In this document: positions 2,775 to 54,546 of the stretch, in pieces
How positions within the stretch are numbered: the first letter of the stretch is position 1
Layout of the letters: the number at the start of each line of letters is the position of its first letter
Assembly (NCBI GenBank): GCA_032123355.1
Contig: JAQBFM010000079.1
Location: 1 to 54,837, forward strand
DNA length: 54,837 bases
Source: Lentisphaerales bacterium
GTDB taxonomy: Bacteria > Verrucomicrobiota > Kiritimatiellia > SPBP01
Direction of reading: 5' to 3'
Made by a program: the position numbers and the translations under genes
The notes under the pieces: generated by a model
Databases searched by the model: none
Told to the model about the DNA's origin: nothing
The model's input: the letters and a program-made list of their open reading frames with translations, nothing else

Positions 2775-4004
2775 ATGAAAAGTCCGGGCACGGATACTAA
2801 TGGATGCATATTTGATCCGGTCGAAGAGGCCGTTGCCGCCGTACGCAACGGCGAGCTTGTCGTGGTCACTGATGACGAGACGAGAGAGAACGAGGGTGAC
2901 CTCGTCGTGGCTGCCCAGAAGGTCAGCGATAAAGCCATAAACTTCATGACAATCAATGGGCGTGGGCTCATCTGTGTTGCACTTCCGTCCGACCGACTCC
3001 GTAAGCTCGGTATCGAGAAGCTGTCGCATCGGCGAGGCGGCGACCGGTTCGGCACCGCATTCACGGAATCTGTTGACGCGGCTAACGGAATAACAACGGG
3101 TATAAGCGCGCAGGATCGGGCCGAAACAATACGCGTGCTGATGGACGAGAATAGTAAGCCCCAGGACGTAGTAAGTCCGGGCCACATGTTTCCACTTGAG
3201 GCTAAGCCGGGCGGCGTCCTGCGGCGCGCCGGCCATACAGAAGCAGCGGTCGATCTTGCCGTCATGGCCGGACTGCGCCCCGCCGGGGTGATCTGCGAGA
3301 TTCTTCGGGAAGATGGTAAAATGGCGCGATTGCCGGAATTGCGTGAAATCAGTTCGCGACATGGCCTGAAGATGATCTCAATCGCCGACCTGATAGCTTA
3401 CCGAAGGAGCAGTGAGAAACTCGTCGAGAAAGTCAGGGCCATCTCATTGCCGACAGACTTGGGCCATTTCGACCTGCATCTCTACAGGTCCATAGTGGAT
3501 GGCGAACATCATCTTGCGCTGGTCATGGGTTCGCCCCAGACGGAAGATGCTCCACTTGTCAGGGTTCACAGCGAATGCCTTACCGGCGAAGTGCTTGGCT
3601 CCTTGCGCTGCGATTGCGGTCAGCAGCTGAAGGGCGCAATGCAGATGATATCCCAGGCCGGTGCCGGCGTCCTGGTCTACATGCGCCAGGAAGGAAGAGG
3701 CATCGGACTCGCGAATAAACTGCATGCATATGAGCTTCAGCAGACGGAAGGACTTGATACGGTTGACGCTAATACCAGGCTCGGCTTCCCAGCTGACCTG
3801 CGCGACTACGGGATTGGGGCCCAGATACTCCTTGATCTCGGACTCAAGCGCATTCGGCTCATGACCAATAATCCCAGGAAGATAGTCGGACTGCAGGGAT
3901 ACGGCCTGACCATAGTCGAACGAATTCCAATCGTTCACGAGTCAACTGAATACAGCGAAGCGTATCTCCATACCAAGAAGGTGAAGCTCGGTCATTTGTT
4001 GTAG
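2775..4004 (+). CDS. ribBA: Bifunctional 3,4-dihydroxy-2-butanone 4-phosphate synthase / GTP cyclohydrolase II
   Basis: DDETRENEGDL, GHMFPL, RAGHTEA, RVHSECLTGE, RCDCGQQL, QEGRGIG, TNNPRK. Start set at ATG 2775 after a purine-rich RBS; the ORF-track start lies inside the terminator. Confidence 0.97.
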   Translation: MKSPGTDTNGCIFDPVEEAVAAVRNGELVVVTDDETRENEGDLVVAAQKVSDKAINFMTINGRGLICVALPSDRLRKLGIEKLSHRRGGDRFGTAFTESVDAANGITTGISAQDRAETIRVLMDENSKPQDVVSPGHMFPLEAKPGGVLRRAGHTEAAVDLAVMAGLRPAGVICEILREDGKMARLPELREISSRHGLKMISIADLIAYRRSSEKLVEKVRAISLPTDLGHFDLHLYRSIVDGEHHLALVMGSPQTEDAPLVRVHSECLTGEVLGSLRCDCGQQLKGAMQMISQAGAGVLVYMRQEGRGIGLANKLHAYELQQTEGLDTVDANTRLGFPADLRDYGIGAQILLDLGLKRIRLMTNNPRKIVGLQGYGLTIVERIPIVHESTEYSEAYLHTKKVKLGHLL

Positions 4005-7668: not shown

Positions 7669-7710
7669 CAAGTGGTAGTAACGCTGGCAATCAGTTCTTT
7701 TGTATCGATT

Positions 7711-8086
7711 GGTGGAGGCGTTCGGTCGCTCTTTCGCAACTGTGAAAGGGAGGAAAGTCCGGACTCCTCAGAGCAGGATGTCCTCGGGCTCGAAAGGGTA
7801 CCGGGGAGGCATTCCGTTAACCGGAATGGACGGACAGTGCCACAGAGAATATACCGCTCCGCATAATGCCTTGTGCACTATACGGAGTAAGGGTGAAAAG
7901 GTGGTGTAAGAGACCACCGGACCTTGCAGTAATGCGGGTTGCATGGCAAACCCCATCCGGAGCAAGATCAAATAGGGGACCCGAGGGGCTGCTCGCCCCG
8001 TTCCCGTGAAAGCGGGTAGGGTTCCGGGTAGATCGCATAAGATAAATGACCGACATCTGAACAGAATCCGGCTTATGTCCTCTGCC
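7711..8086 (+). ncRNA. rnpB: RNase P RNA (bacterial type A)
   Basis: gaggaaagtccggactc, agtgccacagagaa, gggtgaaaaggtggtgtaagagaccacc, ggcaaaccccatccggagcaag, aacagaatccggcttat; P1 ggtggagg/cctctgcc. Ends approximate. Confidence 0.96.
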
Positions 8087-9007
8087 TTTCGATACACTAA
8101 ATTAACCGGCAGGTCCGCCTGGGCCGTGCTGGCTGCTGCGTTGATTGCGTGTCTGCTATTCGCAGTAGCATATTTTCGGCTTCCGTCACTCTTGCCCGCA
8201 GGTCCAGGTGTTGAGGCAACGCCCTCCGACTGGGCTGCTGTTGTCCCGCTGCATCAATGCACGTGGTCGGTCTTCCAGACCACAGACGGCAAAACTGAGC
8301 CGGAAGCCGGTCCCTTATCGCAGCGCTTCAGGCTCGCCGGAACGCTCGTGTGGCTCGACCCTGACGGCACCGAGATCAAGAAAGCTATCCTCGCCGATCT
8401 CCAGGCCCGCACCGAAGAAATAGTCAGCGAGGGCACACTCGTCGGCAGCATAGAGGTCGTACGGATTCGACGTGAGAGCGTGTTGCTCAGAGATCGGGTA
8501 GGGGGGCAGGAAGAGGAACTTATTCTAACATACGCCCGCCCTACCCCTGAGCACGACCAGAACGATCCCCCTGCCGTGAGCGCCCCTGAGGGCCTTGAGC
8601 TCGGAGAAGGGGAACTCGTTATTTCAACCAACCGCTTTGGAGCCCAGGTCGGCGCAACCCGCTGGGTAATGTCCCGCGTCAGCGTCATGGGCTTTGTCGA
8701 CGAGATGTCCGAACATCCCGCTCGCGTCGCCAAGCTTTTCGATTCAATGAAGCCCGTCTATGAAGGCGACGGGCCTACGAGGCAGGTTTCCGGCTACGTG
8801 CTGCAACTCGAGGGCGAAGGTGACTTCTATCGCGATGTCGGCCTTAAGGAGGGCGATATTGTTCGCCGGGTGAACAATCTGCCCATGCAGAGCCAGCATC
8901 GCGCAATCTTCTGGATCGACCAGTTCCGGGCCAACAACGCTAATGCATTCCAGATCGACGTAGAGCGTGACGGGAAGGCCGTGCGCCTCGAATACCTCGT
9001 TCGCTAG
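8075..9007 (+). CDS. Type II secretion system protein C-like (N-terminal TM, HR domain, C-terminal PDZ-like)
   Basis: TM helix; FRLAGT..KAILAD...G..V.RIRRESVLL; GLKEGDIVRRVNN PDZ-like end; start uncertain (ATG 8075 or GTG 8126). Confidence 0.75.
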   Translation: MSSAFRYTKLTGRSAWAVLAAALIACLLFAVAYFRLPSLLPAGPGVEATPSDWAAVVPLHQCTWSVFQTTDGKTEPEAGPLSQRFRLAGTLVWLDPDGTEIKKAILADLQARTEEIVSEGTLVGSIEVVRIRRESVLLRDRVGGQEEELILTYARPTPEHDQNDPPAVSAPEGLELGEGELVISTNRFGAQVGATRWVMSRVSVMGFVDEMSEHPARVAKLFDSMKPVYEGDGPTRQVSGYVLQLEGEGDFYRDVGLKEGDIVRRVNNLPMQSQHRAIFWIDQFRANNANAFQIDVERDGKAVRLEYLVR

Positions 9008-45939: not shown

Positions 45940-46016
45940 GCCCCCGTAGCTCAGCTGTATAGAGCAGCGGCCTTCTAAGCCGCGGGTCGCAGGTTAGAGT
46001 CCTGCCGGGGGTGCCA
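45940..46016 (+). tRNA. tRNA-Arg (anticodon TCT)
   Basis: Cloverleaf: acceptor gcccccg/cgggggt, D stem gctc/gagc, anticodon stem gcggc/gccgc with loop cttctaa, T stem gcagg/cctgc, A20, encoded CCA. Confidence 0.95.
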
Positions 46017-50416: not shown

Positions 50417-51367
50417 ATGATCGTATCGACGAAGCAACTGTTTGAACACGCTTATGGAAACTATGCTGTTGGGGCCTACAACATCAACAATCTTGAGCAG
50501 ACCATGGGCCTGTTCCGGGGCTGCATTGACAGCAAGGCCCCGTTCATCATCCAAATATCAAAGGGCGCTCGTTCATACACCAACAAGCTGATGCTTGAGG
50601 CGATGATCCGTACCGCGGGCGACATCTTCCCGGACGCGATCTTCGCTGTTCATCTGGATCATGGTGATGAAGAAGCTTGCATGGACTGCATCGAGAGCGG
50701 GTTCTACAGTTCGGTCATGATTGATGCCAGCGACCAACCCTTCGATGGGAATATCGAGACGACCAAGCGCGTTGTGGACGCGGCCCATGCCAAAGACATC
50801 GCGGTCGAAGCCGAACTCGGGCAACTTGGCGGAGTAGAAGAGCACGTCTCGGTCAGCGAAGAAGACGCACACCTTACCGACCCGGCACAGGTCGAAGAGT
50901 TTGTGCATCGCACGAATTGTGACAGCCTTGCATGCGCGATCGGCACAAGCCATGGAGCCTACAAGTTTACGAGCAGCCAGGGGCTGCACTTCGAAGTAAT
51001 CGAAGAAGTGCGACGTCGCCTACCGGGCTTTCCGATCGTCATGCATGGTTCGAGTTCCGTACCGCAGGACGAAGTCAAGCGCATCAATGCGGCCGGTGGC
51101 GAGATGAAGGGCGCAAAGGGCGTGGATGAGGCCCAGATCAGCAAAGCCGGCAAGATGGGCGTAACGAAGGTGAACATCGACACCGACGGCAGGCTGGTAT
51201 GGTGCCGCGTACACCGCGAGTTCTTCAGAGATAAGCCGGAAGTCTTCGATCTGCGCAAGCCCGGTATCGTCTTCATGGACGAGTACGCCAAGTATATCGT
51301 GCACAAGAATGACGTACTCGGAAGCTCCGGCAAGATCGATGCAGTTCGCAAGCTGGTCTCCAAATAG
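50417..51367 (+). CDS. fba: Fructose-bisphosphate aldolase class II
   Basis: AVGAYNINN, HLDHG, SSVMIDAS, VEAELG, AIGTSHGAYK, VMHGSS, KVNIDTD. Confidence 0.96.
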   Translation: MIVSTKQLFEHAYGNYAVGAYNINNLEQTMGLFRGCIDSKAPFIIQISKGARSYTNKLMLEAMIRTAGDIFPDAIFAVHLDHGDEEACMDCIESGFYSSVMIDASDQPFDGNIETTKRVVDAAHAKDIAVEAELGQLGGVEEHVSVSEEDAHLTDPAQVEEFVHRTNCDSLACAIGTSHGAYKFTSSQGLHFEVIEEVRRRLPGFPIVMHGSSSVPQDEVKRINAAGGEMKGAKGVDEAQISKAGKMGVTKVNIDTDGRLVWCRVHREFFRDKPEVFDLRKPGIVFMDEYAKYIVHKNDVLGSSGKIDAVRKLVSK

Positions 51368-51419
51368 CCGCACTACTTCGCTGATCCGGGCCTTCCGCGC
51401 GAACAAGATAATCGTCCTG

Positions 51420-51829
51420 CCCTACGAAGCCGCTCGCGGCGAAGTAGGGTCCTCGTCCGCCCGACGTAGCCAGGAGGTTCGCTTCGCGGACCGACGGCGA
51501 AGTCGGGACACAAGGTAAAGCGAGGTGCCTCTCCGGCGCCGCATGAATCGTCCTCGTCCTCGCCTGCCCGACGTAGCCTTGGCGAAGTTGGGTCCTCAGT
51601 GAGGAACGCGAAGCGTGACGAACGGTCCTCGTGTGCCAAGCCGTAGTCCCGACCTCGAAGAGAGTCGGGAGACGAAGGCTGGTCCTCGGCAGTTCTGGTG
51701 GGCCGGGCTGTCCCCTGTACCAGAGTCCGTCAGCCGACGGACACGGTACAGGGCACGCCCAGCACGGCCGAACCAGCAGCTTCCGGTACTCGCGATGAGG
51801 CCTGTCCTCCGAAGCTTCCGCGAAGGAGG
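51420..51829. repeat. Mosaic array of palindromic modules separated by GTCCTC linkers (BIME-like)
   Basis: Modules at 51420-51449, 51460-51507, 51567-51592, 51636-51682, 51806-51829 sharing an outer frame CC..cg(a/t)ag ... g(c/a)gaag..GG. Confidence 0.85.
51697..51774. repeat. REP/REPIN-like inverted pair with nested hairpin
   Basis: ccctgtacc ... ggtacaggg around gtccgtc-agcc-gacggac; the left 23 bp recur exactly at 54524. Confidence 0.75.
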
Positions 51830-51974
51830 AACAGCGCCGCCTGCCCCGCACTGTGCTTTGCTCTGGTGCGGGGCGAGCCACCTACTGCGGCCACCGCAAT
51901 GTGGCAGGCAGCAAGTTCCAACTGCGTGCAGTTTCGTAGTGACACCAACGGCACAAGTTCCTACCATTCCCTAC

Positions 51975-52012
51975 TTGGACATTGGATATTCCTTGTTGGA
52001 TATTGGATATTG
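51975..52012. repeat. 7-bp periodic array
   Basis: ttggaca ttggata ttccttg ttggata ttggata ttg. Confidence 0.85.
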
Positions 52013-52076
52013 AAGGGGGCGAGGCAGCCGATTCTCCTGCAACTTGATTACAGTGAGACATTAAGGATGGCGCATC

Positions 52077-53369
52077 ATGATACCACGCTACACCGGCAGT
52101 GAAATGGGGGCCATCTGGTCGGACGAAAACAAGTATGCCGTCTGGCTCAAGATTGAAATACTTGCGTGCGAAGCAATGCATAAGCAGGGCCTCGTACCCG
52201 CCGCCGACCTGGCCCGCATCAAGAGACGGGCCCGCTTCAACGTTGCTCGGATCGATAAGCTCGAGCTCAAGGTGCGCCACGACGTTATCGCGTTTCTGTC
52301 AAATGTCGCCGAATATGTCGGCCCGTCCTCCCGCTATATCCATCGCGGCCTCACGAGCTCCGATATCCTGGACACCGCGCTCGCAGTCCAGATGAAACAG
52401 GCGATCGGCATCCTGATTAAGGACGCGCAGGCAGTACGGAGCGCGGCTGCGGCCAAGGCAAAGAAGTTCAAGTGCACCCCGATGATCGGACGCTCGCACG
52501 GTGTTCATGCGGAGCCTATCACCTTCGGCCTCAAGATGGCCCTTATGTATGACGAGTTCGGGCGAGCCATAGACCGTCTGAAGCGCGCGCAGGATATCAT
52601 ATCTGTCGGCCAGCTTTCGGGCGCAGTGGGAACCCATGCTCATCTCTCACCCGTTGTTGAGAAATACGTCTGCCGAAAACTGGGGCTGAAACCGGCCGCC
52701 ATTTCCACACAGGTACTCCAGAGGGACCGGCATGCGGAATACATGTCCGCCCTCGCCCTCTGCGGGGCATCTGTCGAACGATGGGCCCAGGAATTCCGGC
52801 ACCTGCAACGTACCGAGGTGCTCGAGGTCGAGGAGTATTTCGGGAGCAAGCAGAAAGGATCTTCTGCGATGCCACATAAGAAGAATCCTATCACCGGTGA
52901 AAAACTCTGCGGCCTGGCACGCATCATCAGGGGCAACCTTGTCGCGGCCCTCGAGAATGTTGCGCTCTGGCACGAACGCGACATTTCGCACTCATCCGTC
53001 GAACGCATCATACTACCCGACAGTACCATTGCGCTTGATCACATGCTCGTCTCACTTGACGGTCTGGTCAGACAGATGAAGGTCAGCCCGAAACGCATGC
53101 TGGCAAACATGAATCTTACGCGCGGCCTGATTCACTCGCAGCAACTGCTGCTTGCCCTTGCCGACTCCGGACTCGAGCGGGATCTCGCCTACCGCATCGT
53201 TCAACGAAACGCGATGAAATCGTGGGAGACCGGAAAGGACTTCAGGACCCTGATCGAAGCAGACCCGGATATTGTTTCAAGGGTCTCAGCCAAGGCAATA
53301 GACCGTGCTTTCGATCTCGACGTGCACTTCAAGGATGTCGACAGAACATTCAAAGCCCTGGGGCTCTGA
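52077..53369 (+). CDS. purB: Adenylosuccinate lyase
   Basis: MIPRY, RHDV, H.GLTSSD, GRSHGVHAEP, GSSAMPHKKNP, LWHERDISHSS. Confidence 0.98.
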   Translation: MIPRYTGSEMGAIWSDENKYAVWLKIEILACEAMHKQGLVPAADLARIKRRARFNVARIDKLELKVRHDVIAFLSNVAEYVGPSSRYIHRGLTSSDILDTALAVQMKQAIGILIKDAQAVRSAAAAKAKKFKCTPMIGRSHGVHAEPITFGLKMALMYDEFGRAIDRLKRAQDIISVGQLSGAVGTHAHLSPVVEKYVCRKLGLKPAAISTQVLQRDRHAEYMSALALCGASVERWAQEFRHLQRTEVLEVEEYFGSKQKGSSAMPHKKNPITGEKLCGLARIIRGNLVAALENVALWHERDISHSSVERIILPDSTIALDHMLVSLDGLVRQMKVSPKRMLANMNLTRGLIHSQQLLLALADSGLERDLAYRIVQRNAMKSWETGKDFRTLIEADPDIVSRVSAKAIDRAFDLDVHFKDVDRTFKALGL

Positions 53370-54451: not shown

Positions 54452-54523
54452 CGGAACGACTCAAGACCAGCATCTTCTGGTACTCCCGCTGGGGCTTGTC
54501 CTCCGTATTGACCTACGGCAAAA

Positions 54524-54546
54524 GGTGGGCCGGGCTGTCCCCTGTA
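54524..54546. repeat. Exact 23-bp direct repeat of 51697-51719
   Basis: ggtgggccgggctgtcccctgta at both sites. Confidence 0.95.

Follow-up and report, generated by a model that had tools for sequence, protein, structure and literature searches.

Hairpin modules between fba and purB of a Lentisphaerales bacterium as probable members of a cross-phylum DNA hairpin family linked to miniature GIY-YIG genes

The Ssn system comprises GIY-YIG nucleases of the SsnA family, which act on single-stranded DNA (ssDNA), and SRM hairpins, the Neisseria NTS among them (Chenal et al., Nat Commun 2025, PMC11893778). SsnA of Neisseria meningitidis—a single-domain GIY-YIG protein of 94 amino acids (aa)—binds the NTS only as ssDNA and on one strand, does not bind RNA, and cuts a few bases upstream of the NTS, the three bases before the palindrome being critical for cutting; Ssn nucleases have been assigned to the CDD family cd10448 (GIY-YIG_unchar_3) (PMC11893778). 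The CGTC-tagged superfamily of repetitive extragenic palindromic (REP) sequences, which includes dRS3 as well as RPE-4 and RPE-6 of Rickettsia, is characterized by stems of 8-9 bp in which A/T pairs come first, by loops of 4-5 nt, and by an unpaired CGTC or TGTC tag in front and CCA as a tail (Di Nocera et al. 2013, PMC3733652). The locus considered here lies in a stretch of 54,837 nucleotides from a Lentisphaerales bacterium (contig JAQBFM010000079.1 of assembly GCA_032123355.1), referred to in its entirety as the window, in which the 709-bp intergenic gap between fba and purB holds five hairpin modules, M1 to M5, all on the plus strand and together spanning 51416-51833. This spacer is a REP-like repeat mosaic, selfish or domesticated, of Ssn-type hairpins. 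The initial annotation of the stretch had proposed an undescribed repeat system; the kind was, however, already described in 2025, the enzyme linked to these hairpins being a tiny GIY-YIG protein of the Ssn type (PMC11893778). M1, M2, M3, M5 and, more distantly, M4 are probably copies of a cross-phylum, strand-specific DNA hairpin family with a GIY-YIG partner, which would have spread in an Ssn-like manner into a mosaic resembling the bacterial interspersed mosaic elements (BIMEs).

The five modules share a common outer frame, as had been annotated, and follow one plan: a 5′ tag, a variable outer stem of 6 bp, a 3x3 purine bubble, a GCC:GGC inner stem (with GTC:GAC or GC:GC as alternatives) and a centre that differs in size between modules. 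In order from M1 to M5, the tags read CTG, CG, CTG, GTG and CTG and the outer stems CCCTAC, CCCGAC, CCCGAC, CCA(A)GCC and TCCTCC. The bubble, in which C-G(A/T)A-G on the left stands opposite C-GAA-G on the right, is closed by C-G pairs and is invariant among the modules. The arms had been described as palindromic, but CGAAGCC/GGCGAAG and CGTAGCC/GGCGAAG hold this bubble (G-W-A opposite G-A-A) and are thus not plain palindromes. M1 (51416-51452) combines a CCTG tag with the stem CCCTAC/GTAGGG, a GAA/GAA bubble and the sequence GCCG-CTCG-CGGC. M2 (51456-51510) has the canonical frame CCCGAC-GTA-GCC...GGC-GAA-GTCGGG around a centre (AGGA-GG...CC-GAC) that forms a second hairpin tier with a GA/GA bubble; since the AGGAG...CGAC type of centre recurs in the Victivallales genome L055, it is not a random insert. 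M3 (51563-51595), which reads CCTG-CCCGAC-GTA-GCC-TT-GGC-GAA-GTTGGG, is the canonical member; its G.T wobble is confined to this strand. The divergent M4 (51633-51687) places the frame CCA(A)GCC-GTA-GTC...GAC-GAA-GGCTGG around a CCGAC...GTCGG hairpin and is followed by GGTCCTC, and M5 (51801-51833) reads CCTG-TCCTCC-GAA-GC-TTCC-GC-GAA-GGAGGA. The centres of M2 and M4 move together with their frames as single units. Folding as single-stranded DNA reproduces the proposed module structures, whereas the reverse strand of M3 is left unfolded because the G.T wobble turns into an A.C mismatch there. Thermodynamic z-scores per module are modest, from -0.6 to -3.2 (-3.19 for M4); as nearest-neighbour models may undercredit purine bubbles, which probably lowers these scores, covariation was relied on instead. 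A strict structural scan (a 5-bp outer stem, GNA...GAA and a 2-bp inner stem) finds four modules within 410 bp, all on the plus strand, against a mean of 1.1 in block shuffles of the window with both strands counted; M4 escapes it, its structure requiring a bulged A.

Hairpins of this design recur in many other genomes. The pattern CCGACGTAGCC-N(0-30)-GGCGAAGTYGG, scanned over one genome per species for 185,579 species, gave at least 119 loci, and about 75 of those listed carry the same hairpin of 24-34 nt, whose usual form among the matches listed is exactly YTG-YCCGAC-GTA-GCC-TT-GGC-GAA-GTCGGR. The hosts among these listed matches are Verrucomicrobiota, Planctomycetota, Lentisphaerota/Victivallales, Kiritimatiellae, Patescibacteria/Saccharibacteria, Bacteroidota, Acidobacteriota, delta- and gammaproteobacteria, Sumerlaeota and others. 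About 40 of the matches listed, from Streptomyces and Mycobacterium (L014, L018, L039 and about 35 more), lie in conserved coding sequence with a 43-nt span and were excluded as chance agreement with the pattern, the stretch being no repeat. Further copies at the same loci have other stems (CCGCC, CCACC, CCTCC, CCTGC and CCAGAC), the CCTCC variant of M5 being present in L024, L089 and L207 as well, and in L042 a complete module is nested in the loop of another. A long variant from Verrucomicrobiota, GCC-TCCCGGAGTCTAAACGACGGG-GCGAAG, is seen in L099 (7738-7804), L016, L020, L025, L031, L037, L063, L078 and L113; its copy in L099 has a 22-nt insert between a TCCCGG duplication. At the same position inside an IS91-family transposase gene, modules are found in the deltaproteobacterial genomes L024 (2213-3440), L081 and L123; in L024 the copy at 2567-2590 disrupts the transposase frame and the copy at 3007-3030 is in frame (..APVRRRLAEGGW..). 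A literature search with the hairpin sequence returned chance primer matches only.

The structure of the hairpin family is under constraint. The outermost pair, which the pattern leaves free, is C-G in 35 copies, T-A in 28, T-G in 5 and C-A in 2 (Fisher p 3e-12), and among copies defined by the core alone all five outer positions are paired in 70 of 95. Across a diverse set of 35 copies, pairing amounts to 95.9% of cells, and to 17-46% when the partners are slid, and 47 double-sided changes are seen against 12.8 +/- 4.1 in shuffles; the bubble letters are constant across copies save for the left-hand middle base. The co-variation of the two arms that had been remarked on between the five modules is borne out, their outer stems covarying as well. 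A covariance model, R1, was built from these 35 copies, all from other genomes and none from the window. Applied to both strands of the window, it identified M3 (45.8 bits, E 4e-9), M1 (33.7 bits, E 4e-6) and M5 (32.3 bits, E 1e-5), together with a weak local match to M2 around its large centre (16 bits, E 0.11). No other significant match to R1 was found on either strand of these 54.8 kb, M4 being too divergent for detection.

The hairpin family is tied to genes for tiny single-domain GIY-YIG proteins, probably its autonomous partner. When 617 open reading frames (ORFs) of up to 250 aa lying within 400 bp of the roughly 75 fetched hairpins were clustered, the only recurrent families were single-domain GIY-YIG proteins and the interrupted IS91-family transposase. 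In three unrelated genomes (L036, L102 and L125), GIY-YIG genes of 85-92 aa begin 27-75 nt downstream of a forward module. The proteins of these three genomes match Pfam PF01541 with E-values of 1e-12 to 1e-15; across the family the proteins measure 80-92 aa, and the residues invariant in this clade, Tyr7, Tyr19 and Glu65, align with Y6, Y17 and E64, the residues mutated in SsnA. All four independently fetched homologues with flanking sequence have modules upstream, and the layout holds in all of the first seven loci. Among a further 80 GIY-YIG loci from metagenomes, 73 of them with enough upstream DNA, R1 finds a module no more than 450 nt upstream of the gene in 47 of the 73, as against 4 matches elsewhere in about 150 kb; the strict scan alone places a module in 32 of 67 GIY-YIG loci against a background of 4 matches in 97 kb. 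The upstream copies are forward in 37 loci (median about 44 nt before the start codon), inverted in 26 (median about 105 nt) and present in both orientations in 16, which fits recognition of DNA on either strand. A gene for a transfer RNA (tRNA), of many different identities, or for a transfer-messenger RNA (tmRNA) ends on the same strand 80-200 nt upstream in 42 of 61 nuclease loci. At least 13 of these 42 have an inverted module that begins in the last 2-5 bases of the tRNA or tmRNA gene, so that the terminal CCA forms part of the CCAGNC stem of the module. The resulting cassette—tRNA or tmRNA gene, inverted module, forward module and GIY-YIG gene of 80-92 aa—recurs in this order in many phyla (L130, L133, L134, L141-L221; for example L142 1352-1500 and L207 1398-1500). 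Solo hairpins are also enriched near tRNA genes, with a tRNA within 150 nt in 7 of 74 loci; no module lies beside the tRNA gene of the window (45940-46013). On the position of such nuclease genes next to tRNA or tmRNA genes, nothing relevant was found in the literature searched, and PMC11893778 makes no mention of tRNA. The GIY-YIG protein P0067 was considered as a protein of this species and rejected.

Like the Ssn system, the family consists of short, oriented hairpin repeats of 20-50 nt with a 5′ tag (three nucleotides of which are critical in Ssn) that are multi-copy, clustered and mostly intergenic, and genes for single-domain GIY-YIG proteins of about 80-95 aa are flanked by their own hairpins. 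Differences from Ssn include the tag, which is YTG in the modules and (C)GTC in Ssn, the stereotyped position after tRNA and tmRNA genes, which is absent from PMC11893778, and the hosts, which here are mainly bacteria of the Planctomycetes-Verrucomicrobia-Chlamydiae (PVC) group, the Candidate Phyla Radiation (CPR), Bacteroidota and Acidobacteriota. With the CGTC-tagged REPs the modules share a CGTCCT(C/G) sequence situated 1-12 nt upstream at this locus, many copies in other phyla starting with TGTCC; they likewise have no associated transposase, and some copies lie in frame inside genes (L024), as the RPEs do. In contrast to that superfamily, however, the modules are GC-rich, with stems of 6+3 bp and an internal bubble, and the T of TGTC is base-paired in them (T-A covaries with C-G), so that they fall outside the published definition. 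The REP, BIME and REPIN sequences of Enterobacteria and Pseudomonas, with their RAYT enzymes, resemble the present system in that imperfect palindromes are arranged with linkers in intergenic mosaics, structure is preserved by covariation, and a small dedicated enzyme is presumed to recognize a single-stranded hairpin. They differ from it in the unpaired 5′ GTAG, which the modules lack, and in the linked enzyme, which is of the Y1/HUH type and not GIY-YIG.

By analogy with SsnA and the NTS, the folded hairpin on ssDNA would be the binding target of the nuclease, with cleavage a few bases before the tag; at this locus that point corresponds to the GTCCTC/CGTCCTC linkers. Solo hairpins would then spread or duplicate at such linker sites and accumulate in tolerant spacers, the outcome being a BIME-like mosaic mixed with other repeat families. 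Strand-specific recognition of ssDNA is indirectly suggested by the tolerance of G.T on one strand and by conservation in both orientations. The GTCCTC linkers that had been reported between the modules are indeed concentrated here: GGTCCTC occurs four times in 51448-51687—after M1, M3 and M4, and once at 51624—as against six times in the remaining 54 kb of the window. The linker GTCCTCGTCC (51449-51458, plus strand) joins M1 to M2, and a tag array, AATCGTCCTCGTCCTCGC (51545-51562, plus strand), which carries a lineage-specific tag of the CGTC type, is proposed as an insertion or cut zone in front of M3. Part of it, GAATCGTCCTCG, also precedes the single, degenerate module in L137, a relative with an Fba 94% identical and the same gene order, whose spacer measures only 309 bp; about 400 bp of mosaic must therefore have been gained or lost since the lineages split. 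The L137 spacer retains the purB-proximal ~90 bp.

Copies of several spacer units are found on other metagenome contigs. In Logan contigs of four sediment or aquatic metagenomes, where the organism has a depth of 12-23, summed contig depth (which is not a copy number) rises to 200-1200 over 51551-51796 and over 51961-52042, the latter with 230-1240 against about 13 when taken by itself. It reaches 640-1180, against 12-23 in the flanks, over a high-copy unit at 51592-51632 on the plus strand, which has GTCCTC at its flanks and a GCGAAGC mini-hairpin inside. At 91-97% identity, most at about 93%, the segments 51548-51632, 51622-51688, 51666-51739 and 51697-51769 recur on further contigs with a depth like that of the organism, and M4 does so at about 91%. 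The identity of about 92-94% between neighbouring units and their copies implies, to judge from sequence divergence, a fairly recent spread. In nine contigs per run, ...AATCGTCCTC is joined straight to position 51592 (GTCCTCAGTGAGG...), and these contigs thus represent paralogous sites without M3; relative to them, M3 is a 36-nt insert between GTCCTC repeats, the very place that the supposed cleavage shortly before the tag, by a few bases, would hit. The initial annotation had envisaged growth by insertion of palindromes into palindrome loops. Such growth has counterparts in the nested module of L042 and in L099 with its TCCCGG duplication, but it is not demonstrated in the spacer, where M3 sits between GTCCTC repeats. 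A metagenome pattern scan for 51598-51619, within the high-copy unit, gave 0 matches, the collection evidently containing no samples that hold the organism. An exact copy of the unit from another locus was present in an RNA-seq contig (run X26).

Several results weigh against membership in an Ssn-like, nuclease-driven family, and some of them favour another account, in which the modules are fossils left by earlier invasions and retained neutrally, or protein-binding sites adopted by the host, with no cognate nuclease in the genome and an arrangement produced by ordinary recombination among GTCCTC-flanked repeats. BIMEs of Escherichia coli, for comparison, are used by gyrase and IHF. No GIY-YIG gene is present in the 54.8-kb window, and tblastn with 20 of the GIY-YIG proteins finds no remnant there; the nucleases have no match in NCBIfam, and their best solved relatives in the PDB are UPF0213 and SLX1. 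M1, M2 and M5 show no raised contig depth and are thus not multi-copy at 90% identity or above in the metagenome contigs, which may mean that these copies are old. In six near-identical strains, whose assemblies encode an identical Fba, the 709-bp spacer is conserved apart from 0-5 substituted bases, all outside M1-M5; polymorphism among strains, which the initial annotation had proposed as a check, is not seen as presence/absence variation at the locus. In structure, too, a purine bubble with stems of 6+3 bp contrasts with the single stem of 7-8 bp in NTS and SRM, and the published SRM motif HGTCWYN(0-2)YYVSBRHN(0-5)WNVSBRGN(0-2)RNCYNB matches no module on either strand of 51300-52100; in the whole window it has one unrelated match. 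All five modules are, moreover, sense to both flanking genes, as a role in RNA would also predict. The debris-like look of a rearranged partial copy of the mosaic that follows purM adds to the case for fossils shaped by recombination. This account seems unlikely, given that M3 is near-perfect with respect to the family consensus save for one G.T wobble and flank positions, and that the neighbouring units are multi-copy at 92-94% identity. Mobilization as REP or BIME elements by a RAYT transposase of the Y1 HUH type, a link that had been anticipated for this locus, might be read from the clustered mosaic layout in an intergenic spacer and from the GTAG tetranucleotide in M2, M3 and M4. It is hardly credible, as GTAG is part of the bubble and not an unpaired tag at the 5′ end, GAAG replaces it in M1 and M5, and no recurrent Y1 transposase is found among the 617 ORFs near the fetched hairpins, where GIY-YIG genes take that place.

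Alternatively, the modules might act as RNA, in the 3′ untranslated region (UTR) of fba or the 5′ UTR of purB, as loop-E-like protein sites, terminators, stabilizers or processing signals, the association with tRNA and GIY-YIG genes then reflecting RNA processing. The tolerance of G.T (G.U) wobbles on this strand only is in line with such a role, as is the fact that the inverted copies abut the 3′ ends of tRNA and tmRNA genes, where a terminator is expected; the GUA/GAA bubble, which we take to resemble a loop E or sarcin-ricin motif, points the same way. Yet forward and inverted copies are equally kept in one direction of transcription, where the bubble would be purine in one RNA and pyrimidine in the other. 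Because copies on opposite strands form the same hairpin as DNA and different structures as RNA, an element acting at the DNA level is favoured, and of the selection for DNA or RNA structure that had been suggested the constraint on structure stands, whereas its RNA part is unlikely. Elsewhere, the orientation of modules to neighbouring long ORFs is 5 sense to 6 antisense, a noisy test that relies on crude gene calls, and the modules are largely missing from the same spacer in the 94% relative. The C-TT-G tip, with its two bases, is of a kind that DNA hairpins typically have. Neither the modules nor the hairpin at 51842-51873 have a T run, and a search of Rfam at gathering thresholds matches nothing in the spacer, in agreement with the earlier statement that no named family is recognizable; at permissive thresholds the long hairpin at 51693-51778 alone is matched, by miRNA and mraW look-alikes scoring 18-22 bits. 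The spacer has no coverage in RNA-seq runs that weakly cover fba, data so thin that transcription is still possible, and SsnA, the model for the nuclease, does not bind RNA (PMC11893778). That the RNA reading is kept at all, as a quite improbable one, is due to all five modules being sense here. If the modules are, as preferred, DNA hairpins of the GIY-YIG-linked family, they most likely have no present function in the spacer, or else one in insulation or termination between the two genes, fba and purB.

The order of tRNA or tmRNA 3′ end, inverted hairpin, forward hairpin and 80-aa GIY-YIG gene invites a bolder interpretation, namely that of an autonomous ssDNA mobile element of about 400 bp that homes to the CCA ends of tRNA and tmRNA genes across many phyla and sheds solo hairpins throughout the genome; the purine-bubble hairpin would then serve an Ssn-like nuclease as a novel and portable module for recognizing ssDNA. 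It is put forward tentatively and is rather doubtful; if true, this would be the smallest self-mobilizing element known. With the nuclease genes in a constant place behind tRNA and tmRNA genes, whether the cassettes are mobile or domesticated can be tested directly. Should the enzymes act like SsnA, they would provide a second, structurally different ssDNA cutting site (stem, purine bubble, stem), of interest for ssDNA tools. Taken alone, the spacer is an ordinary repeat pile-up, but its modules expose a hairpin family that is near letter-for-letter constant across very distant phyla. For annotators, it carries the warning that covarying leader or trailer hairpins of this family are DNA repeats and not riboswitch-like RNAs.

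The remaining features of the locus belong in part to other repeats. Upstream of the spacer lies fba (50417-51367, plus strand), an ORF for a class II fructose-bisphosphate aldolase (Pfam PF01116 on an identical protein), and downstream purB (52077-53369, plus strand), an ORF for adenylosuccinate lyase (PF00206 and PF10397). The hairpin of about 80 nt at 51693-51778, which had been called REPIN-like, is real (-31.5 kcal/mol in the DNA fold, z -6.45) and near-perfect, but is part of another dispersed repeat family, contigs from other loci carrying copies that are about 93% identical; on the minus strand its tip reads TGTCCGTC..GACGGAC, that is, a tag and stem without the bubble. A further hairpin, CCCCGCAC...GTGCGGGG, lies at 51842-51873. 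The purB-proximal region (51925-52042, plus strand) contains a direct-repeat array of the TTGGATA type, the 5′ part of which is kept in the 94% relative by alignment, and the array at 51961-52042 could be a dispersed promoter-like box. The partial copy after the purM stop (54466-54546, plus strand), detected by blastn, joins a 5′ half-module, CTTG-TCCTCC-GTA, to the left arm of the long hairpin: 51772-51811 recurs there at 85% identity, including the half-module, and the 23 nt of the left arm (51697-51719) reappear unchanged at 54524-54546. Elsewhere in the window, Rfam matches at gathering thresholds comprise a flavin mononucleotide (FMN) riboswitch at 2533-2702, RNase P RNA at 7710-8091 and the tRNA at 45940-46013.

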